Shown: positions 7,908-23,551, counted from the stretch's first letter. The stretch is DNA of 64,000 nucleotides from an uncultured Chloroflexia bacterium (GCA_963776395.1 CAVZML010000006.1:197312-261311), one strand, 5' to 3'. The notes: generated by a model from the letters alone, not told the origin. A program made the numbers and translations.

Positions 7908-8753
7908 CTACCCCTCGCCGCCGCTCCGGTCGCGCAGGAAGCGCTCGATCTCGGTGATCAGGTCGTCGCCCTCGGGCAGGCGTGATTCGTCCACCATCGC
8001 TTCGAGACGCCCCACGTAGGCGTGCGTGGACTCGTCGGCCGCCGCGGCGGCGTCCAGGCGCACGCGGAGCGCCCGGGCCTCCTCGGACAGGTCCCCGCGC
8101 GGCAGCTCAACGTCCAGGTGGCGTTCCAGGGCGCGGAGGAGGGCGACCGAGGCCGTCGAGTAGTCCCCCGTGACGTAGTGGGGGATCTGCGCGAAGTAGC
8201 CGACCGCCGGGATGCCCGCGGCCGACGCCGCCATCTCGAGCATCGACAGCGCCGCCGACGGCACCCTCATCAGGCCCGTGGGGCCGGCCTGGACGCCGCC
8301 GCGCAGGAGGCCGGGGCTCGACTCCGTGCCGAGGATCGGCACGGGACGCGTGTGCGGGACCGCGGCCGGGATCGCGCCGAGGCTGATCCAGGTCCGGACG
8401 TCGAGTCGCTGCAGGAGCTCCACGACGGCGTCGGCGAGGGCGTGCCAGCGGTCGTCCGGCTCGGAGCCGGACAGGATCAGGATGTCCCGGTCCGACAGCC
8501 GGGCGTGGCGCAGCGCCAGCTCCGGCCAGGCCAGCGTCGACAGCCGCCCGTCCCGGATCTCGAGCGTGGGCCGGCGGGAGCGGTAGTCGAACAGTGCGTC
8601 GGAGTCGAAGCTGGCGATCCGGGTCCCGCCCTCGGCGAGCACGGCGACGGCGCCGGTCGCGGCGGACCCCGCGTCCACCCAGCCGTCCATGGCGGCGATG
8701 ACGACTGGCGCGACCAGCGACGGCAGCGGGTCTTCGATGCTGTACAGCGGCAT
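7908..8753 (-). CDS. PAC2 (proteasome-assembly-chaperone-like) family protein
   Basis: The sequence MPLYSIEDP...VVIAAMDGWVDAGSAATGA... matches the PAC2 family pattern. I chose ATG 8753 as the start. The extra 123 upstream codons of ORF 7908..9122 are Arg/Ala-rich and non-protein-like. Confidence 0.8.
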   Translation of the reverse strand: MPLYSIEDPLPSLVAPVVIAAMDGWVDAGSAATGAVAVLAEGGTRIASFDSDALFDYRSRRPTLEIRDGRLSTLAWPELALRHARLSDRDILILSGSEPDDRWHALADAVVELLQRLDVRTWISLGAIPAAVPHTRPVPILGTESSPGLLRGGVQAGPTGLMRVPSAALSMLEMAASAAGIPAVGYFAQIPHYVTGDYSTASVALLRALERHLDVELPRGDLSEEARALRVRLDAAAAADESTHAYVGRLEAMVDESRLPEGDDLITEIERFLRDRSGGEG

Positions 8754-8952
8754 GGCCGAAGGATACGGCGCCGGAGCGGGGCGGCGTACGCCGGGCGACC
8801 GGGTTTGCCTCCGGGCGGTGGCGACGACGCCTCCGCCGACGAGGCGCGCTCGCGGCATGTCCCGTCCGGCGGGCCGGTTCGCGCCACTACTCGCCGAGGC
8901 TCGGCCCGGGGCGTTACCCTCTGCCGACCGCGAGGGAGGCTTGACGAACCGG

Positions 8953-10157
8953 ATGATCCGCGCCACGGCGTTCCACGAGCGGACCGCGGCCCTGAACGAG
9001 ACCGGCCTCTGGAGCCACTGGGCCGGCCACCTGGCCGCCGAGCGATACGCCCCGTCCGAGAAGACGGAATACTTCGCGGTCCGGAATGCTGCCGGGATCT
9101 TCGACACCTCGCCGCTGGTCAAGACGCGCTTCTCGGGGCGGGGCGCGGAGCGGTTCCTGGCCGGCGTCCTGGCGAGGGATCCCAGGATTCTGGCGCCCGG
9201 TCGCGCCCAGTACGCGATCTGGTGCGACGACCGGGGCTTCCTCGTCGAGGACGGCGTCCTGCTCCGCCACGGCCGCGGACGAGTTCATCCTGACGTCGGC
9301 GGAACCATGTCTCGGCCTGGTTCTCGGACCTGGCGGGCCGGCGTGACGCGGTGGCGATCGAGGACGTCTCGGACGACCACGCGGTCCTGTCGGTCCAGGG
9401 GCCGCGCTCGCGGACGGTCCTCGAGCGCGTGGAGCCGGTGGTCGCGACGCTGCGTCCGTTCCAGCTCGCGCCGGGTGCGATCGCTGGGCGGCCGGTGACG
9501 ATCTCCCGCACCGGGTACACGGGCGACCTCGGCTACGAGGTCTGGACCCGGGAGGAGCACGCACTGGCGGTCTGGGACGCGGTCTGGGCGGCGTCACGCG
9601 GGCACGGCGCGCTCCCGTTCGGGCTGCAGGCGCTCTACATGGCGAGGATCGAGGCCGGGCTCCTCCTCCTCGACGTGGACTACCGCTCCAGCCGGTTCGC
9701 GTGGACGGACGCGGACCGCGCGACGCCCCACGAGCTGGGTCTCGGCTGGATGCTGAGGGACGTCGAGAGCACGGATCGCGCCTTCGTCGGCCGCACCGCG
9801 ATCCGTCGCGAGCTCGCGGAGGGGGCATCGCGCTTCCGGCTCACGGGCCTGGTGCTCGACTGGCGGGACTGGAACAGGGTCCACGAGGAGGCGGGCCTCG
9901 TCCCACCCATGGACCACGTACCCGTCCAGGAGGAGATGTTCGTGTACGACGACGCCGGCGTGCAGCTGGGCTACGCGACGAGCTTCATGTACTCGCCGGT
10001 CCTCCAGCGCCACATCGCGCTCGCGCGTGTGCCTGTGGCCCTGGCCGCCCCCGGGAACCGGGTCAGCTTCGAGATCGCCGTCAGCCACCGCTACGTCGGG
10101 GTCGTGGCGCACACGACCTCGCTGCCCTTCTTCAACCCCCCGCGACGGAGGGCGTGA
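8953..10157 (+). pseudogene. GcvT-family aminomethyltransferase / folate-binding protein, two +1 frameshifts (~9270, ~9313)
   Basis: The N-terminus (AFHERTAALNETGLW...AVRNAAGIFDTSPL) is in frame 1. A short stretch (AADEFILTSAEP) is in frame 2. The remainder (AIEDVSDDHAVLSVQGP...ISRTGYTGDLGYEVW...) is in frame 0. Confidence 0.8.
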
Positions 10158-14674: not shown

Positions 14675-15271
14675 TTACTTGACGAGCGTGCCGTCGGCGC
14701 CGACGACGTACCACTTGCCGCCAAGACCCTGGCCGGTCACGTCTCCCGCGGCCTTGTCGCCGGCGAAGCGGTAGAGCGGCAGCCCGTGGAAGGTCACCTG
14801 GGCGGAGCCGTCGTCACGGGTGATCGTGTCGAAGGCGGCGGCGTCGAGGCCGGTTCCGAGCACCGGTGCCGCCGCACCCGCGAGGGGCGGCCACTTGGCG
14901 GCGCAGTCGCCGGTGCAGGCTGACGTCCCGCCGGAATCCGCGGTGAAGACGTAGAGGGTCAGGCCCGCACCATCGACCAGCACCGTGCCCAGCGAGGTGT
15001 CGCCGAGATTGACCTCGGCCGCTGTCGTGGCGGGTGCCGGCGTGGCCTCTGCCGCACCGTAGCCTCCCTTGCCGCCGCCTGCAGCCGGCGCCGGGGTCGC
15101 AGCCGGCGCCGAGGAGGTCGCAGCCGTCGCCGGGGTCGCAGCCGGCGCCGAGGAGGTCGCAGCCGTGGCCTGGGTGCCGGTCGACCCGGCGCCGCTGCCG
15201 CTCGAGCAGGCACCGAGGGCGGCGCCCAGCAACAGGAACAGCAGGAGAGTGACGGATCGGGAAGGTCGCAT
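14675..15271 (-). CDS. Secreted lipoprotein with COG4315-type repeats
   Basis: There is a signal peptide with lipobox LGAC. The C-terminal repeats (LYVFTADSGGTSACTGDCAAKWPP, GLPLYRFAGDKAAGDVTGQG) match this family. I preferred the start at the second Met (MRPSRS); the ORF track begins at 15304. Confidence 0.7.
   Translation of the reverse strand: MRPSRSVTLLLFLLLGAALGACSSGSGAGSTGTQATAATSSAPAATPATAATSSAPAATPAPAAGGGKGGYGAAEATPAPATTAAEVNLGDTSLGTVLVDGAGLTLYVFTADSGGTSACTGDCAAKWPPLAGAAAPVLGTGLDAAAFDTITRDDGSAQVTFHGLPLYRFAGDKAAGDVTGQGLGGKWYVVGADGTLVK
15090..15167. repeat. 39-nt perfect tandem duplication in the lipoprotein linker
   Basis: The unit gccggggtcgcagccggcgccgaggaggtcgcagccgt occurs twice. 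It is in frame and gives a duplicated 13-aa Ala/Thr/Pro/Ser stretch. Confidence 0.8.
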
Positions 15272-15412
15272 CGCTGGATCTCCTGGTCGGTGGCTCATTG
15301 GCAAGGACGGTTACGCCCCGGCGCCTCGCGTGGTTTCAGGTCCGCGTTCGCGCCGACCGGCCGCCGGCCCTCCGTCACGAACCCGAAAGGCTCCGCACGG
15401 CAGGATCGGGGC

Positions 15413-15733
15413 ATGAACAACACCGACAACGGACGCACGCTGGCCCGGTCCCGCGCCAACAGGCGTCTGCGCAACCTCACGATCGGGACCGCAGCGTTCG
15501 GCATCGCCGCAACGGGCAGCCTCGGCTGGCTGGCGGCGATGAGCTACGACGGGTCCACCTCCGTCGCCACGACCGCCGTCGCCGGCACGACCGCGGACTC
15601 GTCGACGACCACGGCGACGGCTGCGACCCCGACGCCTGCGACCACGACGACGTCGGCCGGCGCGGCAGCCACGGCGGCACCGGTCGTGACGACGACGAGC
15701 GGAACCGGCCACGCGACCACGGGCGGCTCATGA
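15413..15733 (+). CDS. Membrane-anchored mini-protein 1 (106 aa), C-terminal GHATTGGS
   Basis: ATG at 15413. The protein has a basic N-terminus, one hydrophobic helix, a Thr/Ala-rich spacer and the tail GHATTGGS. Its stop lies 1 nt before the apbE GTG. A paralogue is at 20997-21353. Confidence 0.55.
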   Translation: MNNTDNGRTLARSRANRRLRNLTIGTAAFGIAATGSLGWLAAMSYDGSTSVATTAVAGTTADSSTTTATAATPTPATTTTSAGAAATAAPVVTTTSGTGHATTGGS

Positions 15734-15734
15734 C

Positions 15735-16701
15735 GTGAGCGGCGCTGCCCGTGAAGGGATACAGCAGGCGGACTGGCGGGCACTCGGGACGGGTGCCCGT
15801 CTCGTCGTCCTCGACGGCGACCTCCAGGCCGCGCGGGTCGCGGTGGAGCGGGTCCTGGCCGAGGTCGACCTGGCGTACTCCAGGTTCCGCCCGGACTCGG
15901 AGCTGATGACGCTCCACGCATCGCGCGGCCGACAGCGTGCCCGTGAGCCCGCTCCTCGCCAGGGCCGTGGCCGGCTCGCTCGCCGCGGCCCGACGGTCCG
16001 GCGGCGCCGTCGACCCGACGGTCGGACGCGCCCTCCGCGTCATCGGCTACGACGCCGACTTCGGCATCCTCGCCGGCACGACGCGCGAGCTGGAGCTCCG
16101 TGTCGCGGCAGTGCCCGGCTGGTCGACCATCACGCTCGACCCGAAGTCCCGCATGCTCCTGATCCCGCGCGACGTGGAGCTGGACCTCGGATCCACCGGC
16201 AAGGGCCTCGCGGCCGACCTGGCTGCGGCAGCCGCCCTGGACGCGGCCGGGGACGATGCGGGCGTGCTCGTCAGCCTCGGCGGCGACATCGCCACGGGCG
16301 GCAGGGCGCCCGAGGGCGGCTGGCGGATCCTCCTCGCCGAGGACAGCGGCCGACCGTCGAACGGTGACGGCGACATGATCGCGATCCAGACCGGCGGGAT
16401 CGCGACCTCCAGCACCACGGTGCGGCGCTGGGGGACCACCGACGGCGTGACCGTCCACCACATCATCGACCCCCGAACCGGCATCCATGCCGATACGCCA
16501 TGGCGGGCCGCCACCGTGGTCGCCGCGACCTGCGAGGAGGCGAACGCCGCCTCCACCGCCGCCATCGTCCTCGGCGCCGAGGCGCCAGCGTGGATCGCGG
16601 CCACCGGCCTGCCCGCCCGCCTCGTCGCGAACGACGGCAGCGTGACGTACCTCTGCGGCTGGCCGGCGCCCTCCGCGACCACGGCGATGACCGGCGCGTA
16701 A
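15735..16701 (+). pseudogene. apbE: FAD:protein FMN transferase (ApbE), one +1 frameshift near 15936
   Basis: ApbE-type motifs are present: FRPDSELM, DPTVG, DLGSTGKGLAAD, IATSSTT, HHIIDPRTG. The first roughly 67 codons are in ORF 15735.. and the rest in ORF 15937..16701. Removing one nucleotide in cgacagcgtgcc restores ...GRQVPVSPLL.... Confidence 0.85.
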
Positions 16702-16714
16702 CCGGACCGAAAGG
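16696..16714 (+). promoter_or_regulatory. Cluster-specific motif GCGTAACCGGACCGAAAGG
   Basis: This site matches 20956-20974 (gcgtaaccggatcgaaagg) at 18 of 19 positions. A partial copy is at 15373-15390, and an inverted GCGTAACCG is at 15309-15317. All lie in leaders of genes of the same cluster. Confidence 0.35.
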
Positions 16715-16801
16715 TGCCGGCCGGGACACTGGGCGGGTAACCGAAACGCGTGGAACCGGCCGGTCGCCGGTCCTGCGCCGCCCAGCGAGGAGGAACCCGA
16801 A

Positions 16802-17395
16802 ATGTTCGACCAGGTCCTGTGGTTCGCCACACGTGGCGCCGGAGCCGTGTCGCTGCTCATGTTCACGGCGTCGGCCGCCCTCGGGCTCGTGACGGTGGTC
16901 CGCTTCCAGGCCGCCGGCTGGCCCCGGTTCTTCAACTACGAGATGCACCGTCGCGTGTCCCTGCTCTCGATCGCATTCCTCGGCGTCCACGTGCTGACCG
17001 CCGTCCTCGACCCGTTCACGAGCCTGGGCATCGGTGCGGCCCTGGTGCCGCTCGCCTCCACCTACCGGCCGCTTCCCGTGGCCCTCGGCGTGATCGCGCT
17101 CTACCTGTTCGTCGCGCTGATCGCGTCGAGCCTGCTCCGCAGGCGCATCGGTCAGCGCGCCTGGCGGGCGATCCACTGGACGAGCTATGCCATGTGGCCC
17201 CTCGCCCTCCTGCACGGGATCACCGCCGGTACCGACGCATTCACGCCCTGGATGATCGCGGTCGACCTGGTCGCCATGGCCGTCGTCACGGCAGCCCTCG
17301 GCTGGCGGATCGCCGCGGGCAACCCGAACCGCACGCGACTGCCCGAGGTTGTCGCCTCCTCCTCCTGGCAGGCCGCCCGGAGCGACGGACGATGA
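16802..17395 (+). CDS. Ferric-reductase-like (FRD/MsrQ-type) transmembrane haem-b protein
   Basis: 197 aa with 5-6 predicted helices. Two His pairs are spaced 13-14 residues apart (EMH..GVH and AIH..LLH), as in bis-haem FRD domains. Confidence 0.75.
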   Translation: MFDQVLWFATRGAGAVSLLMFTASAALGLVTVVRFQAAGWPRFFNYEMHRRVSLLSIAFLGVHVLTAVLDPFTSLGIGAALVPLASTYRPLPVALGVIALYLFVALIASSLLRRRIGQRAWRAIHWTSYAMWPLALLHGITAGTDAFTPWMIAVDLVAMAVVTAALGWRIAAGNPNRTRLPEVVASSSWQAARSDGR

Positions 17396-18633
17396 CGGCG
17401 CGCCTGCTCGCGGGTCCCGCCCTCACCGCCGGCCCGGAGACGCTCGCAAGCCACCTGGCACGGCTCGGCCCCGTTCCTGGTGCGCGCGAGGCTCGCGCGA
17501 TCCCCCAGGTCCTCGAGGCGGCGGGCCTGCTCGGTCGCGGCGGCGCGGGGTTCCCGGTCGGACGCAAGTGGGCCTCCGTTGCCGACCGCTCCGAGGGTCG
17601 CGCCGTGGTCCTCGCCAACGGTGCCGAGGGCGAGCCGCTGAGCGCGAAGGACCGCGCGCTGATGGGCACCCGCCCGCACCTGGTGCTCGATGGCGCGGAG
17701 CTGGCGGCCGCGGCCGTGGGTGCCGAGCGGATCGTCCTCTACGTCGGGTCCGAGCATCATGCCGCGCGGGCGGCGCTCGGGCGGGCGATGGGTGAGCGCA
17801 CGGCCGACACCCGCCGATCGGCCACCCGCGTCCCGATCGAGCTCGTCGCGGCCCCACCGACCTACGTCGCGGGCGAGGAGTCGGCGGCGGTCCACTTCAT
17901 CAACGACGGGGACGCACGGCCGACCGCCACGCCGCCCCGGCCGTTCGAGCGCGGCATCGACGGCCGCCCGACCCTGGTCCAGAACGTCGAGAGCCTCGCC
18001 CACGCGGCGCTGATCGCCCGGTACGGGGACCGGTGGTATCGCGACGCGGGCCGGGCCGGCACCCGGGGCACCGCGCTGATCACGGTCGGCGGGGTGCCGA
18101 TGCCGGGCGTCGCCGAGATCGAGATCGGAACCACCCTCGCGGAGGTGGCGCAGACCACCGGGGCGCCGGTCGGCGGGGGTCCGGTGCTGCTGGGCGGCTA
18201 CTTCGGTGGCTGGGTCTCCGGCGCGTCCGCGTGGCGGACACCCCTCGACCCGCATGAGCTGCGTGCGGCGGGCTCCGCGTTCGGCTGTGGCGTGGTCCGG
18301 TTCCTGGGCCCCGACGAATGTGGCGTCCGCGCGACCGCGCTGATCCTCGACTTCATGGCCGGGCAGAGCGCCGCCCAGTGCGGCCCCTGCGTCTTCGGCC
18401 TGCGGGCAATCGCGGATGCGACGGCGCGCCTCGCCCAGGGAGCGGCGCGTGGTGACGACCTCCGCCGTGTCGATGGGTGGTCGCAGACGCTCGCGGGCCG
18501 GGGCGCCTGCCGCCACCCGGACGGTGCGGTCGGTCTCCTGCGCAGCGCCCTTGCCACGTTCGACGGCGACTTCGTCTCGCACCAGCGCGGTCGCGGCTGC
18601 ACGGCGGGACGCGGCGCCTGGGCAGCCGCATGA
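17392..18633 (+). CDS. NuoF-like NAD(P)H-binding Fe-S protein (SLBB / NADH_4Fe-4S type)
   Basis: GRGGAGFPVGRKW, NGAEGEPLSAKDR and the C-terminal Cys motif QCGPC...GACRHPDG resemble the complex I 51-kDa subunit. ATGA start/stop overlaps are present at both ends of the gene. Confidence 0.75.
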   Translation: MTARLLAGPALTAGPETLASHLARLGPVPGAREARAIPQVLEAAGLLGRGGAGFPVGRKWASVADRSEGRAVVLANGAEGEPLSAKDRALMGTRPHLVLDGAELAAAAVGAERIVLYVGSEHHAARAALGRAMGERTADTRRSATRVPIELVAAPPTYVAGEESAAVHFINDGDARPTATPPRPFERGIDGRPTLVQNVESLAHAALIARYGDRWYRDAGRAGTRGTALITVGGVPMPGVAEIEIGTTLAEVAQTTGAPVGGGPVLLGGYFGGWVSGASAWRTPLDPHELRAAGSAFGCGVVRFLGPDECGVRATALILDFMAGQSAAQCGPCVFGLRAIADATARLAQGAARGDDLRRVDGWSQTLAGRGACRHPDGAVGLLRSALATFDGDFVSHQRGRGCTAGRGAWAAA

Positions 18634-18959
18634 GCGCCCCCGCTTCCTTGGCCGCCGGCATGTCCGACCGGACGATCGTGATCGACCGCATCGCCTGCGA
18701 CGGCTACGGCACGTGCGCGGAGCTGCTGCCGGAGATGATCGCGCTCGACGACTGGGGTTATCCCATCATCCGTCCGGGACCCGTCCCGGACGCCCTGCTC
18801 GGGCACGCCCGCATGGCGGTCGACACGTGCCCGGTGCTGGCGCTGCGCCTCGTGGCCGTCGCCCGTGCGACCATGGCGCCGGCGACCAATGCCGGGTCGG
18901 CAGCCGTCCGCGCGGGTGGCCCCGCCCGCGAGCAACGGTCGATCGGGCGCGGAGGCTGA
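18630..18959 (+). CDS. Small single-cluster ferredoxin
   Basis: IDRIACDGYGTCAELLPE...DTCPVLAL shows the Cx5C...CP pattern of mono-cluster ferredoxins. Its start overlaps the preceding stop (ATGA). Confidence 0.65.
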   Translation: MSAPASLAAGMSDRTIVIDRIACDGYGTCAELLPEMIALDDWGYPIIRPGPVPDALLGHARMAVDTCPVLALRLVAVARATMAPATNAGSAAVRAGGPAREQRSIGRGG

Positions 18960-18963
18960 CGGG

Positions 18964-19632
18964 ATGCGCGTGCTGGTGGCGGAAGACGACGAGGGCCTCC
19001 GGGAGGTCCTGGTCCTCGGCCTGTCCGACGCGGGCTACCACGTCGACGCGGTCGATCGCGGGGACGACGCCATCGACTACCTGAAGTGGTACGAGTACGA
19101 CGTCGCCGTGATCGACTGGCGCATGCCGGGGGCCGAGGGCGTCGACGTCGTCTCCTGGGCCCGCAAGCACGACCGACCGACGGCCCTCCTCATGCTCACG
19201 GCACGGGACACCCCCGCCGACCGGATCCGGGGCCTCGATTCCGGCGCCGACGACTACCTGGTCAAGCCGTTCGACTTCGGCGAGCTGCTCGCACGCGTGC
19301 GTGCCCTCCAGCGCCGGCCCCGTGGCGTGGACGCCCCCGTGCTCGGCGTCGGGCGCCTGACGCTGGACCCGGTCGCTCGCCTCGTCGCCGTCGGCGGACG
19401 GGAGCTCTCCCTGACGAGCACCGAGTACCGGATCCTGGAGCTGCTGATGCGCCGCGCGTCGGCCGTCGTGGACCGCAAGGCCATCGCCGAGCACGCCTGG
19501 GCCGACGAGACGGAGCCGCTCGGCTCGAACGCGATCGACGTCCAGATGAGCCGCCTGCGCGGGAAGCTGTCCGGCGCCGGAGTCCAGATCGTCACCGTGC
19601 GCGGCGCAGGCTATCGCCTCGAGGCCGTGTAG
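18964..19632 (+). CDS. OmpR/PhoB-family response regulator
   Basis: The receiver domain carries MRVLVAEDD...DVAVIDWRMPG. The winged-helix output domain carries LTSTEYRILELL...VRGAGYRL. Confidence 0.9.
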   Translation: MRVLVAEDDEGLREVLVLGLSDAGYHVDAVDRGDDAIDYLKWYEYDVAVIDWRMPGAEGVDVVSWARKHDRPTALLMLTARDTPADRIRGLDSGADDYLVKPFDFGELLARVRALQRRPRGVDAPVLGVGRLTLDPVARLVAVGGRELSLTSTEYRILELLMRRASAVVDRKAIAEHAWADETEPLGSNAIDVQMSRLRGKLSGAGVQIVTVRGAGYRLEAV

Positions 19633-19634
19633 GC

Positions 19635-20867
19635 GTGTCTCACGTCCCCGGCGTCCGCCGCCAGTCGATCCGTGTCGCGCTCGCCGCGACCGGCGTCGTG
19701 GCCGTCGTGTATCTCGCCGTGGGCGTCAGCGTCGTCGCGTACGTGACCCGCGACCTCACGGCCCAGATCGACAACCGGCTGACCGCGTCCTTCGGCCGCC
19801 TGCCGCCCGATGGGCGGCACCCGGACTCCCCGTTCGACCCCGGTCGTGACCCGGGGCGGCCGTTCGGCGCTCCGCTCCTGGTGTGGACGATCGAGCCCGG
19901 CGGCCTGGTCCTCGCCTCGGCGTCGACGCCGGACCTGCCGGCGAAGCTCGCGAACGTCACCGATCCGGTGACGGCCACGATCGACGGCACGGAGGTCCGG
20001 GTCGCGGGCGTGCGGGTGGGCGACGACCGCGTCGTGGTCGCCCAGGCGACCGACGCGGTGACCGACGCCCAGCGGACGCTCCTCGTCGGCTGGCTGCTCG
20101 TCGCACCGATCCTGCTGGCGTCGGTGTTCTTCGGTGCCGTGGCCATCGGTCGGCGCGTCGCGGCCCCGATCGAGGCCGCGCGGCGTCGCCAGCTGGAGTT
20201 CACGGCGGACGCCTCGCACGAGCTGCGCACGCCGCTGTCCGTGATCGAGGCGCACACCTCTCTCGCCCTGGCCCAGCCGCGCGACGAGGCCTGGTACCGG
20301 TCGGCGTTCGGGCGAGTGGACCGCGAGTCGAAGCGGATGCGGCGGCTGCTCGACGACATGCTGTGGCTCGCCCGGTTCGACGCGTCGCAGGCATCGCCCT
20401 CCAGCGAGCCCGTCGATCTCGGCGTCCTCGTGAACCAGGCCGCCGACCGGTTCGGCGTCGTCGCGGAGGCGCGGCAGCTGTCGCTCGGTGTCCATGTCCC
20501 GGCGACACCGACGGTCATCGCCGCGTCGCCGGAGCTGGTCGACCGCCTCGTCGGCGTCCTGCTCGACAACGCCTGCAAGTACGCCCCGGAGGGCGGAGCG
20601 GTGGACGTCACCGTCACGGGGGAGGGCCACCGGGCGACGTTGACCGTCGACGACTCGGGGCCCGGCATCGCCGCCGAGGACCGGGACCGGATCTTCGACC
20701 GCTTCCACCGCTCGGTCGCGACCTCGAGCGAGGCCGGCGGTGCGGGCCTCGGCCTCGCGATCGGCGATGCCATCGTTCGTGCGACCGGCGGTCGGTGGGC
20801 GGTCGGCTCGTCGCCGTCAGGGGGCGCCCGGTTCGCGGTGGCCTGGAGCCGCACCACCCTCGACTGA
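19635..20867 (+). CDS. Sensor histidine kinase
   Basis: GTG start 3 nt after the response-regulator stop. There are two TM helices flanking a roughly 110-aa external loop. H-box ASHELRTPLS, N-box LLDNACKY and G-boxes DDSGPGI and GGAGLGLAI are present. Confidence 0.9.
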   Translation: MSHVPGVRRQSIRVALAATGVVAVVYLAVGVSVVAYVTRDLTAQIDNRLTASFGRLPPDGRHPDSPFDPGRDPGRPFGAPLLVWTIEPGGLVLASASTPDLPAKLANVTDPVTATIDGTEVRVAGVRVGDDRVVVAQATDAVTDAQRTLLVGWLLVAPILLASVFFGAVAIGRRVAAPIEAARRRQLEFTADASHELRTPLSVIEAHTSLALAQPRDEAWYRSAFGRVDRESKRMRRLLDDMLWLARFDASQASPSSEPVDLGVLVNQAADRFGVVAEARQLSLGVHVPATPTVIAASPELVDRLVGVLLDNACKYAPEGGAVDVTVTGEGHRATLTVDDSGPGIAAEDRDRIFDRFHRSVATSSEAGGAGLGLAIGDAIVRATGGRWAVGSSPSGGARFAVAWSRTTLD

Positions 20868-20887
20868 CCGTCACGGGCGTCGCGCCG

Positions 20888-20970
20888 CGTCACTGCCCTG
20901 CGTCACTCGGGGCCCGTCACTCGGGCGGCGTCACTCGCGACCCGTGACTCGGGCGGCGTAACCGGATCGA
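20888..20970. repeat. 14-bp tandem array (about 6 units, CGTCACTCGGGnnn)
   Basis: CGT(C/G/A)AC units start at 20888, 20901, 20915, 20929, 20943 and 20957. The array lies between the kinase stop and mini-protein 2, and its last unit runs into the GCGTAACCGGATCGAAAGG motif. Confidence 0.8.
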
Positions 20971-20996
20971 AAGGATCCGGACCCGAGACTCGGCGA

Positions 20997-21353
20997 ATGG
21001 ACATCCACGATCAATCTTCCGCCGCCGCGCGCGGCGACGCGCTGATCCGCCTCCGGACCGTGACGGCCGGCGTGGCGGTCGTCGCAGTCGCGGCGACCGC
21101 CGGTCTCGGCTTCGCCGCCGCAAGCGGTTATCGCGGGACGACTCCCGCGACTGATCCGTCGCTTCCATCGGCCACGCAGGCCCCGGCCGACCAGCCGGCC
21201 TCCGGGACCGGCGGATCCTCATCGGGCGGCCAGCCGCAGCAGCTCGCCCCCCAGGACGGCGGGTTCTCGGCGCCGGCTCCGGGCACGCTCCTGCAGCCCC
21301 CCAGCCGCACCAACGGCGGCCGCGGCGGCCACGCGACCACGGGCGGATCCTGA
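20997..21353 (+). CDS. Membrane-anchored mini-protein 2 (118 aa), C-terminal GHATTGGS
   Basis: It has the same architecture as 15413-15733. The final 20 nt of coding sequence before gg(a/c)tc(c/a)tga are identical to paralogue 1. Its stop overlaps the ATG of the GtrA-like gene. Confidence 0.55.
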   Translation: MDIHDQSSAAARGDALIRLRTVTAGVAVVAVAATAGLGFAAASGYRGTTPATDPSLPSATQAPADQPASGTGGSSSGGQPQQLAPQDGGFSAPAPGTLLQPPSRTNGGRGGHATTGGS

Positions 21354-21853
21354 TGACAACCCGGGCACGATCCCGGGTCCGCCTGGGGCGCCAGGCGCTG
21401 GTCTTCGGGTCGATCGGCGTGGTGAGCACGGCCGCCTACGCGGTGCTGTTCCTGGCATTTCGGACGGTGGCCGGGGCTGTCGTCGCGAACGCCATCGCGC
21501 TCGTCGTCACCGCAATCGGCAACACTGCCGCGAACCGCCGGTTCACGTTCGGCGTCCGGGACGGCAGGTCGATGGTCAGGGACCAGGTCGGCGGTCTGAT
21601 CGCCCTCGCCGTCGCGCTCGCGATCACCACCACGTTCGCCAACCTGTTGGCTGTGCTCGCCCCCGGTGCCGGACGCTACGTCGAGCTGGCCGTCCTCGTC
21701 GTCGCCAACGCGATCGCCACCGTGGCCCGCTTCCTCCTCCTCCGCGCCTGGATCACACAGGACCGGCGATCCATGCCGCTTCCGCCGGCGTCCGCCCGCT
21801 TCGCGAGCACGGATACGCAAACCCGCCGCATCGGCGTGCGACGCGGCGGGTGA
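21353..21853 (+). CDS. GtrA-like family membrane protein
   Basis: 166 aa with four helices. [16 protein letters not shown] and [10 protein letters not shown] are typical GtrA-family segments. Confidence 0.7.
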
Positions 21854-21898
21854 GGGTGACGCCTGGGTAGGTCGGGACGCGCCCGGCGCGGGAGCAGC

Positions 21899-23437
21899 CT
21901 ACGCGGCGAACTCGCGCAGCTTGCGGCTCCGCGACGGGTGGCGCAGCTTGCGCAGCGCCTGGACCTCGATCTGGCGGATGCGCTCCCTCGTGAGGCCGAA
22001 CTCGCGGCCGACCTCCTCGAGCGTCCTGGCATGCCCGTCGTCGAGCCCGAAGCGGAGGCGCAGGACGCGCTGCTCGCGACCGTCCAGGCTGGCGAGCACA
22101 TGCTCGATCTGCTCGCGGCGCATGCGGTCCGCCACCACGTCGAGCGGGGACACGGCATCCTCGTCCGGGATCAGCTCGCCGAGCTCGGCGTCGCCCTCGT
22201 CGCCGACCGGCGACTGCAGGGAGACGGGCTCCCGGCCGAGCTTGCGGATCTCCTCGACGCGCTGCGGCGTCATCGCCGGCGTCTCGTCGGGGAGGGCCGC
22301 CGCGATCTCGGCGTTGGTGGGCTCGCGGCCGAGCTGTGTCGACAGCTCGCGCACCACGCGCGCGACGCGACCCATCGTCTCGACCATGTGGACCGGGATC
22401 CGGATCGTCCGGCTCTGGTCCGCGAGGCCGCGCTGGATCGCCTGGCGGATCCACCAGGTGGCGTAGGTGCTGAACTTGAACCCTCGCTCGTACTCGAACT
22501 TGTCGACGGCGCGGATCAGGCCGGCGTTGCCCTCCTGGACGAGGTCCAGCAGGCCCATGCCAGCCTGGTTGATGTACTTGCGGGCGATCGAGACGACCAG
22601 CCGCAGGTTGGCCGAGGTCAGGTGGTCCCGCGACTGCTTGGCCAGGTCCTTGAGAGCCGGGCGCATCTCGTCGATGGCGTCGGCCTCGTTGCCTGCCTCG
22701 AGATACCGGCGGATGGCCGGGTAGGCGATCTCGCCCCGCGCCCAATCGCGCAGCGCGCGCAGCGCGACGTTGCCCCGGATCTCGGCGTTCGGCTTCCCGA
22801 GCTCGCCCTCGATCCAGTCCAGCAGCTCCGTGAAGGTCTCGGCGTCGAGGCGCTCGTTGTACACGGACCGCACGTCCTGGGCACGGACGAGACGCTCCTT
22901 GAGCGCATCGGTCTCGGCCTTCTTGAGCGCGTCGGCAAGCCCCAGTGCGGGCGCGGTGACCAGCAGGTCCATGGCGTCGTCGGACTGGAGCGCAGCGGCG
23001 ACGATGCGGTGCGCCTCCGTCTCGAACGGCACCGTGTACTTGCGGTTCTTCGCCCGGGCGGTGGCCTCCGTATGGTGAAGCGTCCACTCGTGGATGCTCA
23101 GGAGGGCCTTCCAAGGCTCCCCGGCCGCCTGGCCACCGAGCTCCATGCCCTTGGCGAGGATGACCTCCTCCTCCGCGGTCAGGAGCGGCACCCGGCCGAT
23201 CTCCCGCAGGTACAGGCGCACGGAGTCATCCGTGTCCAGGACTTCGGCCGCGACGGGCTCCGGGTCCGGCTCCTCGGGGGCGACGGGGCGGGGGGCAGGC
23301 TCAGGCTCGGGCACCGGAGCCTCGGCGACGAGCGCGGCGGCCTCGAGCTCGGCCGCCACGGGGTCAAGCTCGATGGAGACGGCCGCGAGATCGGTCTCGG
23401 TATCGTTAGCAGAAGGGACAGGGTCGAAGGAAATCAC
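21899..23437 (-). CDS. rpoD: Principal-type RNA polymerase sigma-70 factor
   Basis: Region 1.2 is [11 protein letters not shown]. Region 2 is [10 protein letters not shown]...[29 protein letters not shown]. Region 3 is present, and region 4.2 is [19 protein letters not shown] chose GTG 23437 as the start because a GGAG lies 6 nt upstream; the ORF track begins at 23521. Confidence 0.9.
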
Positions 23438-23551
23438 GATGCTCCAGTTGACGGTGCCGCGCCCAGCCGCGCAGCTCCGTGGAATTCGGACGATCGCCCG
23501 GAGGGACGTCCGGACACGCACACCGGGTCCACGCCACCCGACACACGTAGT

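Follow-up and report, generated by a model that had tools for sequence, protein, structure and literature searches.

We analysed a nine-gene module at positions 15413-21853 (plus strand) of a 64-kb stretch of DNA from an uncultured Chloroflexia bacterium (CAVZML010000006.1:197312-261311; this whole stretch is termed 'the window'), in which the gene for ApbE, an FAD:protein FMN transferase, lies between the gene for a small membrane protein (a 'mini-protein') and that for a ferric-reductase-like membrane cytochrome. The module is best read as a variant, from the Chloroflexota lineage Limnocylindria, of the ApbE-associated 'MsrQ-like' transmembrane electron-transfer systems. We see a slightly better than even chance that its mini-proteins are substrates of ApbE and that the module conducts electrons from NAD(P)H to the outside of the membrane. 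Direct support comes from the family memberships of the gene products, their synteny, the conservation of a C-terminal 'tag' on the mini-proteins, the absence of an FMN_bind protein, the absence of a signal peptide on ApbE and a cis-element common to three sites in the module. The nine genes are as follows.

15413-15733, plus strand: mini-protein 1 (mini-1) gene, 106 aa, without Pfam or NCBIfam match
15735-16701, plus strand: apbE, FAD:protein FMN transferase family, with the Pfam match on 15937-16701
16802-17395, plus strand: ferric-reductase/MsrQ-like membrane cytochrome (Ferric_reduct)
17392-18633, plus strand: NuoF-like NAD(P)H/FMN/Fe-S protein (Complex1_51K, PF01512, and NADH_4Fe-4S, PF10589)
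18630-18959, plus strand: small single-cluster ferredoxin (Fer4_15)
18964-19632, plus strand: OmpR-family response regulator (Response_reg and Trans_reg_C)
19635-20867, plus strand: sensor histidine kinase (HisKA and HATPase_c)
20997-21353, plus strand: mini-protein 2 (mini-2) gene, 118 aa, a mini-1 paralogue of the same architecture
21353-21853, plus strand: GtrA-like membrane protein (GtrA_DPMS_TM)

All nine gene calls of the first-pass annotation were sustained, seven of them by Pfam matches with which NCBIfam agreed, while the two mini-ORFs fall in no family. The response regulator gene starts at 18964 and the kinase most likely at the GTG at 19635, and the ferric-reductase gene is preceded by a GAGGAGG ribosome-binding site. 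Reading of the sequence confirmed ATGA start/stop overlaps at 17392-17395 and 18630-18633, together with the 1-nt gap (15733/15735) between mini-1 and apbE, where the junction reads TCA TGA C GTG (TGA-C-GTG at 15731-15737); the mini-2 stop codon overlaps the GtrA-like gene by 1 nt. The earlier description of genes set with almost no spacing holds except at two junctions: apbE is separated from the ferric-reductase gene by 100 nt, and the kinase gene from mini-2 by 129 nt. Both of these gaps contain a conserved promoter-like element.

Conservation of the module in Chloroflexota

A scan of the genome collection with the ferric-reductase alignment returned 63 loci, 61 of them from Chloroflexota metagenome-assembled genomes (MAGs) that bear the label Candidatus Limnocylindrales or uncultured Chloroflexia, and two, at ~38% identity, from Actinomycetota. 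Candidatus Limnocylindrales lies within Chloroflexota, and the lineage of the module is Limnocylindria, not Actinobacteria. The window proteins were mapped onto all loci, and 59 non-redundant Chloroflexota loci, with smaller denominators for some features, gave the following tally.

Mini-protein directly upstream of apbE or of the ferric-reductase gene: 55/59 loci
apbE adjacent: 49/59 loci
NuoF-like protein and ferredoxin: 46/57 loci
Regulator and kinase: 32/52 loci
Second mini-protein: 15/52 loci
GtrA: 19/48 loci
GT-C glycosyltransferase: 21/48 loci

The genes that had been grouped by their spacing in the window are therefore syntenic in relatives, with an order kept in ~60 independent loci, an arrangement beyond chance. 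Three architectures recur, in which FRD denotes the ferric-reductase gene, Fdx the ferredoxin gene and TCS the two-component system.

Type A (35 loci, among them the window): mini-apbE-FRD-NuoF-Fdx, in most cases with the two-component system after it
Type B (10 loci): mini-apbE-FRD-TCS-GtrA, lacking both NuoF and Fdx
Type C (9 loci): mini-FRD-NuoF-Fdx, lacking both apbE and the two-component system

Eight MAGs carry a type B and a type C locus together, each with its own mini-protein and ferric-reductase paralogue (locus pairs L022/L034, L023/L042, L024/L037, L026/L035, L027/L044, L028/L043, L029/L041 and L030/L036, with L023 and L042 both on chromosome OY969796.1). This co-occurrence indicates that the parts of the module function as a unit which can be divided between loci, and in these eight genomes one ApbE appears to serve two pairs of mini-protein and ferric-reductase-type protein.

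Where relatives have a mini-2-type paralogue, its gene follows the kinase gene and precedes the GtrA and GT-C genes. The GT-C glycosyltransferase of these relatives (PMT_2 and YkcB_C) is encoded after the two-component system, mini-2 and GtrA in ~26 loci (for example at 15989-18076 in L003 and 16587-18653 in L004). No GT-C glycosyltransferase gene was found in the whole 64-kb window, which does have the GtrA gene.

The two Actinomycetota loci (L067, ~8700-9100, and L068, ~8700-9110; both at ~38% identity) are arranged TCS-ApbE-FRD-NuoF-Fdx. In both, a small membrane-anchored, Ser/Pro-rich ORF lies directly upstream of an apbE that lacks a signal peptide, and its C-terminus reads ...PPSDSSGS, not ...TGGS.

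The C-terminal heptapeptide of the mini-proteins

Each mini-protein is built from an Arg-rich N-terminus, one membrane helix, a Thr/Ser/Ala-rich linker and a short conserved C-terminal tag, which in the window is encoded at two positions.

15710-15730, plus strand: mini-1 C-terminal heptapeptide H-A-T-T-G-G-S, a putative flavinylation tag with the last residue as acceptor Ser
21330-21350, plus strand: codons of the mini-2 C-terminal tag, with the same GHATTGGS ending

Both window mini-ORFs end in GHATTGGS directly followed by the stop codon, and they spell the last residues with different synonymous codons (GGC TCA versus GGA TCC), which speaks for selection at the protein level rather than for a DNA repeat. 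Pfam holds no family for either ORF and NCBIfam none for mini-1; for mini-2 the NCBIfam search returned solely PepSY_MTB, at 16.4 bits far below its cut-off of 60.

An unbiased homology search with mini-1 returned 37 proteins of 90-138 aa (one of 176 aa), none of them named or carrying a Pfam domain. All but one (36/37) end in [ST]-G-[GS]-S, and the one that does not is out of frame. Their alignment preserves the Arg-rich N-terminus and the single hydrophobic helix; the segment that leads from the helix to the tag is hypervariable, and rich in Thr, Ser, Ala and Gly. A profile search extended the family to 414 clusters (at 50% identity) with E<=1e-3, 125 of them with E<=1e-10. When representatives from this search were combined with the homologues of the first into a set of 180 proteins, the motif lay within the last seven residues in 155/180, and 115/180 terminated exactly in [ST]G[GS]S.

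The 71 copies taken from the loci give the consensus [AG]-H-[VA]-[ST]-[ST]-G-G-S. Numbering from the terminal Ser as position 0, position -6 is His in 58/71 and Gln in 9/71, position -1 is Gly in 62/71 and Ser in 9/71, and Ser(0) is present in every complete mini-protein. The tag can be set in register with the ApbE motif D-x-x-[ST]-G-A-[ST]: the conserved block is exactly seven residues long, and it has [ST] at -3 and Gly at -2 as in the canonical motif. In that motif, D-x-x-[S/T]-G-A-[S/T], FMN is attached to the last residue and the Asp has been described as 'strictly conserved' (PMC12052999). The same source reports that seven residues suffice for flavinylation, that tags work best at the N- or C-terminus, that Ser is accepted as the acceptor and that changing the Asp to Ala has a minor effect, while Gly-to-Ala and Ala-to-Val changes each roughly halve flavinylation (PMC12052999).

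The first-pass annotation had seen no canonical FMN_bind substrate and had named the mini-proteins as the only exported candidates. Pfam finds no FMN_bind (PF04205) match in the window, and across 64 loci neither an FMN_bind gene nor a protein with a canonical D-x-x-[ST]-G-A-[ST] motif lies within ~10 kb, so that the first of these statements extends well beyond the window. A hidden canonical substrate was rejected, since a six-frame search of the 64 loci for D-x-x-[ST]-G-A-[ST] gave chance matches only (glutamate synthase, for example). The standing of the mini-proteins as sole candidate acceptors is strengthened: the family comprises several hundred clusters, and its only conserved extracytoplasmic feature is the ApbE-like C-terminal heptapeptide.

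An AlphaFold2 (AF2) model of the mini-protein contains one helix (residues 7-43) and is otherwise disordered, with no folded domain (pLDDT 54), and neither Pfam, NCBIfam nor the AF2 model places an FMN_bind-type (PF04205) folded domain of ~120 residues around the tag. Arg and Lys average 6.0 in the N-terminal flank of the helix against 1.5 in the tail of ~64 residues; by the positive-inside rule, this distribution predicts a topology with the N-terminus inside and the C-terminus outside.

ApbE: family, missing signal peptide and coupling to mini-1

Profile searches support the earlier calls of ApbE, the ferric-reductase-type protein and the NuoF-like protein alike. ApbE matches its Pfam family (PF02424) with E=5.5e-40 and aligns with the solved structures 1vrm, 4xdt and 3pnd (E 1e-24 to 1e-19), including the HH-I-[IV]-DP-x-TG region, in an alignment that begins at query residue 9. 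A conserved Trp opens the ApbE fold. There is no room before it for a signal peptide in the window or in L001, L025, L032 and L045, in all of which an in-frame stop lies 7-28 codons upstream of this Trp. Among 116 ApbE relatives a median of 6 residues precedes the Trp and none has a hydrophobic segment there; the 120 ApbE matches listed are all close members of the clade. As far as its sequence tells, then, this ApbE is a bare catalytic domain, predicted to be cytoplasmic. The flavin acceptor outside the membrane that was proposed earlier is kept in the reading we favour, and is complicated by the missing signal peptide.

In most of 43 loci the apbE start lies within a few nucleotides of the mini-protein stop codon or overlaps it, and all three frame relations between the two genes occur (23/17/3). 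The variety of frames, together with the adjoining start, argues for coupling by termination and reinitiation and against recoding. A mini-ApbE fusion made by programmed frameshifting or stop-codon read-through, by which ApbE would be anchored outside, was rejected on the same 43 loci, with an ordinary start right after the stop in three frame relations; P0191, the only protein that looks like such a fusion, results from a frameshift artefact.

This gene pair bears on another account of the mini-proteins, by which they would be unmodified accessory membrane proteins, either partners or assembly factors of the cytochrome or kinase modulators like MgrB and SafA. The C-terminal His/Gly/Ser motif would then be a docking or metal-binding peptide, and ApbE would modify a cytoplasmic target encoded elsewhere or act in flavin trafficking or as an FAD pyrophosphatase. 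An ApbE without a signal peptide suits this account, as do the cytoplasmic ApbEs known to serve cytoplasmic reductases (PMC12052999), the departure of the tag from the canonical motif at -6 and -1, and the position of mini-2 directly 3' of the kinase gene. It does not sit well, however, with the translational coupling of mini-1 and apbE in 43 loci, with the lack of any other candidate motif protein nearby, or with type C loci, where mini-proteins accompany ferric-reductase genes in the absence of a two-component system. Nor does a metal ligand match the pattern of conservation, since ~20% of members have Gln, Arg or Tyr for the tag His while Gly(-2) and Ser(0) are invariant, as would fit an acceptor motif. 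On balance we regard unmodified accessory proteins, the main rival reading, as somewhat unlikely, and continue with the mini-proteins as putative ApbE substrates.

The apbE frameshift in the window

The apbE gene of the window is divided between two frames, with its first 66 codons (15735-15932) in one and the other 254 (15937-16701) in another. Compared with eight homologues, the window has exactly one extra base in GGCCGACAGCGTGCC, near 15928-15940. Taken at face value, this extra base would leave the module non-functional in this strain. Against a genuine frameshift, the codons on both sides of the break are well conserved and the remaining module genes are intact, and similar loci in long-read MAGs are broken at other positions (the 3' end of apbE in L004 and L017, the mini-protein gene in L065, the ferric-reductase gene in L066, the NuoF-like gene in L010, and P0191). 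An independent short contig, L071, matches 16363-17652 at 99.69% identity without gaps, although it ends ~430 nt before the frameshift site; it is the only such contig, and look-ups for exact copies of the window's NuoF-like protein, mini-1 and ApbE fragment returned none. Breaks at other sites in comparable long-read MAGs make an assembly indel the likelier cause; the frameshift is probably an assembly error, and we consider a truly inactivated module unlikely.

Membrane cytochrome and its proposed electron input

The protein encoded at 16802-17395 matches Ferric_reduct (PF01794) at 32.3 bits, above the cut-off of 28. Its four-His pattern, already noted in the first pass, consists of H49/H63 (14 residues apart) and H125/H138 (13 apart), and these residues are invariant in 30 homologues; the AF2 model of the protein has a pLDDT of 70.

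The neighbouring NuoF-like protein scores 196.8 bits against TIGR01959, the NCBIfam equivalog for NuoF (complex I 51-kDa subunit), for which the cut-off is 558.65. Its glycine-rich FMN/NADH loops are kept, and C310, C330, C333 and C373 are invariant. The third Cys of the canonical CxxCxxC N3 triad is replaced by an invariant Gly (G336), and the invariant C310 lies 20 residues upstream instead. The low score and the altered N3 ligands together mark the protein as NuoF-like rather than NuoF, and its sequence suggests an Fe-S cluster with a rearranged ligand set. The small ferredoxin has three invariant Cys, from which it is probably of the [3Fe-4S] type.

NOX and STEAP proteins normally receive electrons from a cytoplasmic flavin. 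This precedent raises the alternative that the tag is flavinylated yet stays in the cytoplasm, where its tethered FMN would take the place of the NOX/STEAP FAD and feed the inner haem, with input from the NuoF-like protein and ferredoxin or from another reductase, and the outer haem would reduce an external acceptor directly. The cytoplasmic type of the ApbE is as such an arrangement would have it, the ferric-reductase superfamily is normally fed by a cytoplasmic flavin and the weak structural matches are to NOX and STEAP proteins, and no acceptor protein for the outside is encoded. The positive-inside rule, however, assigns the Arg-rich N-terminus to the cytoplasm and the tail to the far side, low-complexity tails rich in Thr, Ser and Pro are characteristic of extracytoplasmic linkers, and the module is linked to GtrA and a GT-C glycosyltransferase, which are actors of the outer face. 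In canonical MsrQ-like clusters, moreover, the flavinylated partner is extracytoplasmic (PMC8238504). A tag that remains in the cytoplasm therefore strikes us as very unlikely, and the scheme developed below places it outside.

A cis-element common to three sites

Scanning with the motif GT[CA]A[CT]-N4-7-[CGT]GAAAG[GA] found three copies of a cis-element in the 64-kb window, where 0.11 are expected from shuffled sequence; all are on the plus strand and all within the module.

15374-15406, plus strand: cis-element copy 1, GTCAC-N6-CGAAAGG, then 10 nt and the -10-like hexamer CAGGAT; ends 6 nt before the mini-1 ATG
16698-16730, plus strand: cis-element copy 2, GTAACCGGACCGAAAGG ... GACACT; overlaps the apbE stop, ~70-100 nt before the ferric-reductase ATG
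20900-20959, plus strand: period-14 tandem repeat (~4 copies of CGTCACTCGGG...), adjoining cis-element copy 3 on its upstream side
20958-20990, plus strand: cis-element copy 3, GTAACCGGATCGAAAGG ... GAGACT; ends 6 nt before the mini-2 ATG

Ten bases after each copy there is a hexamer of the form N-A-N-N-N-T. At both mini-protein genes this hexamer ends six bases before the ATG, which suggests leaderless mini-protein transcripts; copy 2 is instead followed by a leader of ~60 nt before the ferric-reductase gene. The element occupies the same three positions in most related loci, with the copy-1 position found in ~50 loci and the copy-2 element lying at about -100 to -117 of the ferric-reductase gene in most. 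Scans for sigma-70 consensus promoters and for terminators returned none, and Rfam recognizes no family in 15200-22000. The most economical reading is that the cis-element is an activator site at -40 to -23, for which the module's own OmpR-type regulator is the candidate binder. In place of the single nine-gene operon first envisaged, the module would then probably comprise three transcription units with a common cis-element.

The sensor kinase has two membrane segments that flank an outside loop of ~114 aa by direct reading of the sequence, and both kinase and regulator fall below every NCBIfam equivalog cut-off. The period-14 repeat between the kinase stop codon and copy 3 shares the GTCAC core of the element and is not obviously conserved in relatives.

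Proposed mechanism

Covalent flavinylation, topology, the order of electron flow, the target of the regulator and the terminal acceptor all enter the following scheme as proposals. Cytoplasmic NAD(P)H would reduce the NuoF-like flavo-iron-sulfur protein, which would pass electrons to the small ferredoxin; they would then cross the membrane via the pair of b-haems in the ferric-reductase-type protein. Beyond the membrane, the acceptor would be FMN placed by ApbE on the terminal Ser of H-[VA]-[ST]-[ST]-G-G-S, rather than on an FMN_bind domain. Its carrier would be a bitopic mini-protein with its N-terminus inside, one helix, and a disordered, Thr/Ser-rich tail of ~60 residues outside. Since the signal peptide is missing from ApbE, whose gene is coupled translationally to that of the mini-protein, loading would most likely take place before export, in the cytoplasm, where FAD is available, and the unfolded tail would be translocated afterwards. 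The OmpR-type two-component system of the module probably controls the three promoters that bear the cis-element.

In its most specific form the proposal treats the mini-proteins as natural flavin tags on which the ApbE of the same transcript places FMN in the cytoplasm, before they are exported as unfolded tails; we put this forward tentatively, as something short of likely. If it is true, the cell would obtain a covalently tethered flavin outside the membrane without an external ApbE or the export of FAD. The flavin would hang on a Thr/Ser-rich segment of ~60 residues that products of the linked GtrA/GT-C genes may O-glycosylate, and, reduced by the two-haem conduit, it would form a tethered electron shuttle that spans the wall. 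GT-C enzymes act at the outer face of the membrane, and the Thr/Ser-rich mini-protein tails are, as a speculation, candidate GT-C substrates.

Several observations weigh against mini-proteins as ApbE substrates in an outward conduit. The tag lacks the canonical Asp(-6) and Ala(-1), having His or Gln for the former and Gly or Ser for the latter, and it is less rigid than it seemed at first: ~40/180 proteins of the family carry one or two residues after the Ser, and in the two Actinomycetota versions the last residues are ...SDSSGS. An ApbE without a signal peptide and a tag predicted outside would be in different compartments unless loading precedes export. We know of no precedent for flavin loading before export; the Sec channel may tolerate bulky adducts. 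Export of a pre-loaded mini-protein by the Tat route is not supported: many members have Lys, Gln, His, Ala or Ile at the first position of the RR pair, the residues that follow RR depart from the Tat consensus, and the N-region makes an unconvincing Tat signal. For the cytochrome, the top PDB neighbours of the model (SpNOX, STEAP1, the NOX5 membrane domain and DUOX) were found with weak E values of 0.01-0.5 (0.01-0.1 for the first three). Finally, the module encodes no terminal acceptor, and the apbE reading frame of the window is not intact.

Neighbouring genes

The flanks of the module in the window are unrelated to it and encode a Lipoprotein_15 protein, a Na/H exchanger, an HhH-GPD glycosylase, a sigma-70 factor and a glyoxalase/PCD protein. 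The Lipoprotein_15 (PF03640) lipoprotein gene (14675-15304, minus strand) is divergent and lies upstream of the module; its product contains a low-complexity linker of repeated ATSSAPAATPA, and the gene is not conserved beside the module in the relatives examined. Several relatives also keep, beside the module, a full-length sigma-70 (RpoD-like) gene whose product carries a long, acidic extension at its N-terminus; the side and the strand on which this gene lies vary (window, 21899-23521, minus strand; L001, 8416-9936; L003, 19019-20306). In the window it is convergent with the GtrA gene and directly follows it.

Significance

While the kind of system is already known, its substrate class, its coupled ApbE without a signal peptide, its regulon and its lineage look new. 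To our knowledge, every natural ApbE substrate described so far is a folded domain or a membrane subunit. These substrates comprise FMN_bind, NqrB/RnfD, DUF2271, DUF3570, flavodoxin-like and FMN-reductase-like proteins. Were the mini-proteins to join them, nature would share the minimal principle of the engineered Flavin-tag, a bare terminal heptapeptide here on a disordered anchored tail, and the motif accepted by ApbE would widen to His or Gln at -6 and Gly at -1. With an ApbE that looks cytoplasmic, the way in which a flavin cofactor crosses the membrane would become a question in its own right. The module would also expose a class of ApbE clusters that a published signal-peptide filter would have excluded. 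For Limnocylindria, an abundant uncultured lineage of soil and freshwater, it would provide a candidate extracytoplasmic redox system, one with a defined regulon of three common promoter elements and a dedicated two-component system.

Comparison with known systems

The mini-proteins and their ApbE have partial parallels. Flavodoxin-like and FMN-reductase-like proteins were recently added to the ApbE substrates, the latter with the acceptor Ser on a C-terminal extension (Huang et al. 2024, PMC11334425). The mini-proteins share that placement of the acceptor Ser; in the FMN reductases, however, the extension folds back on the flavin-binding domain (PMC11334425), and the mini-proteins have no such domain. 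The small secreted DUF4266 proteins of ApbE/DsbD clusters likewise have a C-terminal redox-related motif as their sole conserved feature, but theirs is a matter of CXC cysteine chemistry and a DsbD conduit (PMC8238504), whereas the mini-proteins carry a flavinylation-like motif. The cytoplasmic ApbE that serves a soluble fumarate reductase in Klebsiella pneumoniae (PMC12052999) resembles the present one in lacking a signal peptide and acting in the cytoplasm; its substrate is a folded cytoplasmic enzyme, while the sole candidate here is a bitopic mini-protein with its tag predicted outside. Two of these sources (PMC8238504 and PMC11334425) make no mention of Chloroflexota, disordered substrates or tag-only proteins, and the literature covered, which takes in few of the subscription journals, describes neither tag-only ApbE substrates nor an ApbE in Limnocylindria.

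The closest likeness of the tag is to the engineered Flavin-tag (Tong et al. 2021; PMC12052999), in which a terminal seven-residue motif suffices and no folded domain is needed. The Flavin-tag is synthetic and canonical (D-x-x-S-G-A-T), whereas the tag described here is natural, reads H-x-x-[ST]-G-G-S, ends a disordered tail that is anchored in the membrane, and is putatively modified.

The cytochrome shares with NOX, STEAP and MsrQ a membrane domain for two b-haems with His pairs 13-14 residues apart. It differs from them in having neither a fused FAD/NADPH domain nor an MsrP partner, and in a separate input through a NuoF-like protein and a ferredoxin.

As a whole, the module most resembles the MsrQ-like ApbE-associated transmembrane electron-transfer clusters, which were found in 1,468 genomes, mostly of Actinobacteria, and of which 31 clusters include a NuoF-like PF10589 protein (Meheust et al. 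2021, eLife, PMC8238504). The pairing of a NuoF-like input with a ferric-reductase-type conduit, which the first-pass annotation took to be unusual, is therefore no novelty near apbE (PMC8238504). In both, apbE is clustered with a gene for a two-haem PF01794 protein, NAD(P)H enters on the cytoplasmic side (through a PF00175 fusion or PF10589), and the proposed flow runs from the cytosol to an extracytosolic flavin. MsrQ-like systems typically, though not obligatorily, carry an FMN_bind gene, and the module has none. The survey of Meheust et al. kept only clusters with a signal peptide or lipobox on ApbE or on a known substrate (PMC8238504); here no such signal is present on ApbE or on an FMN_bind, DUF2271 or DUF3570 protein, and by this filter the Limnocylindria module would probably have been excluded. 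Its lineage, Chloroflexota, also sets it apart from clusters that are mostly actinobacterial, as do its tag-only mini-proteins, the two-component system dedicated to it and the GtrA/GT-C genes.

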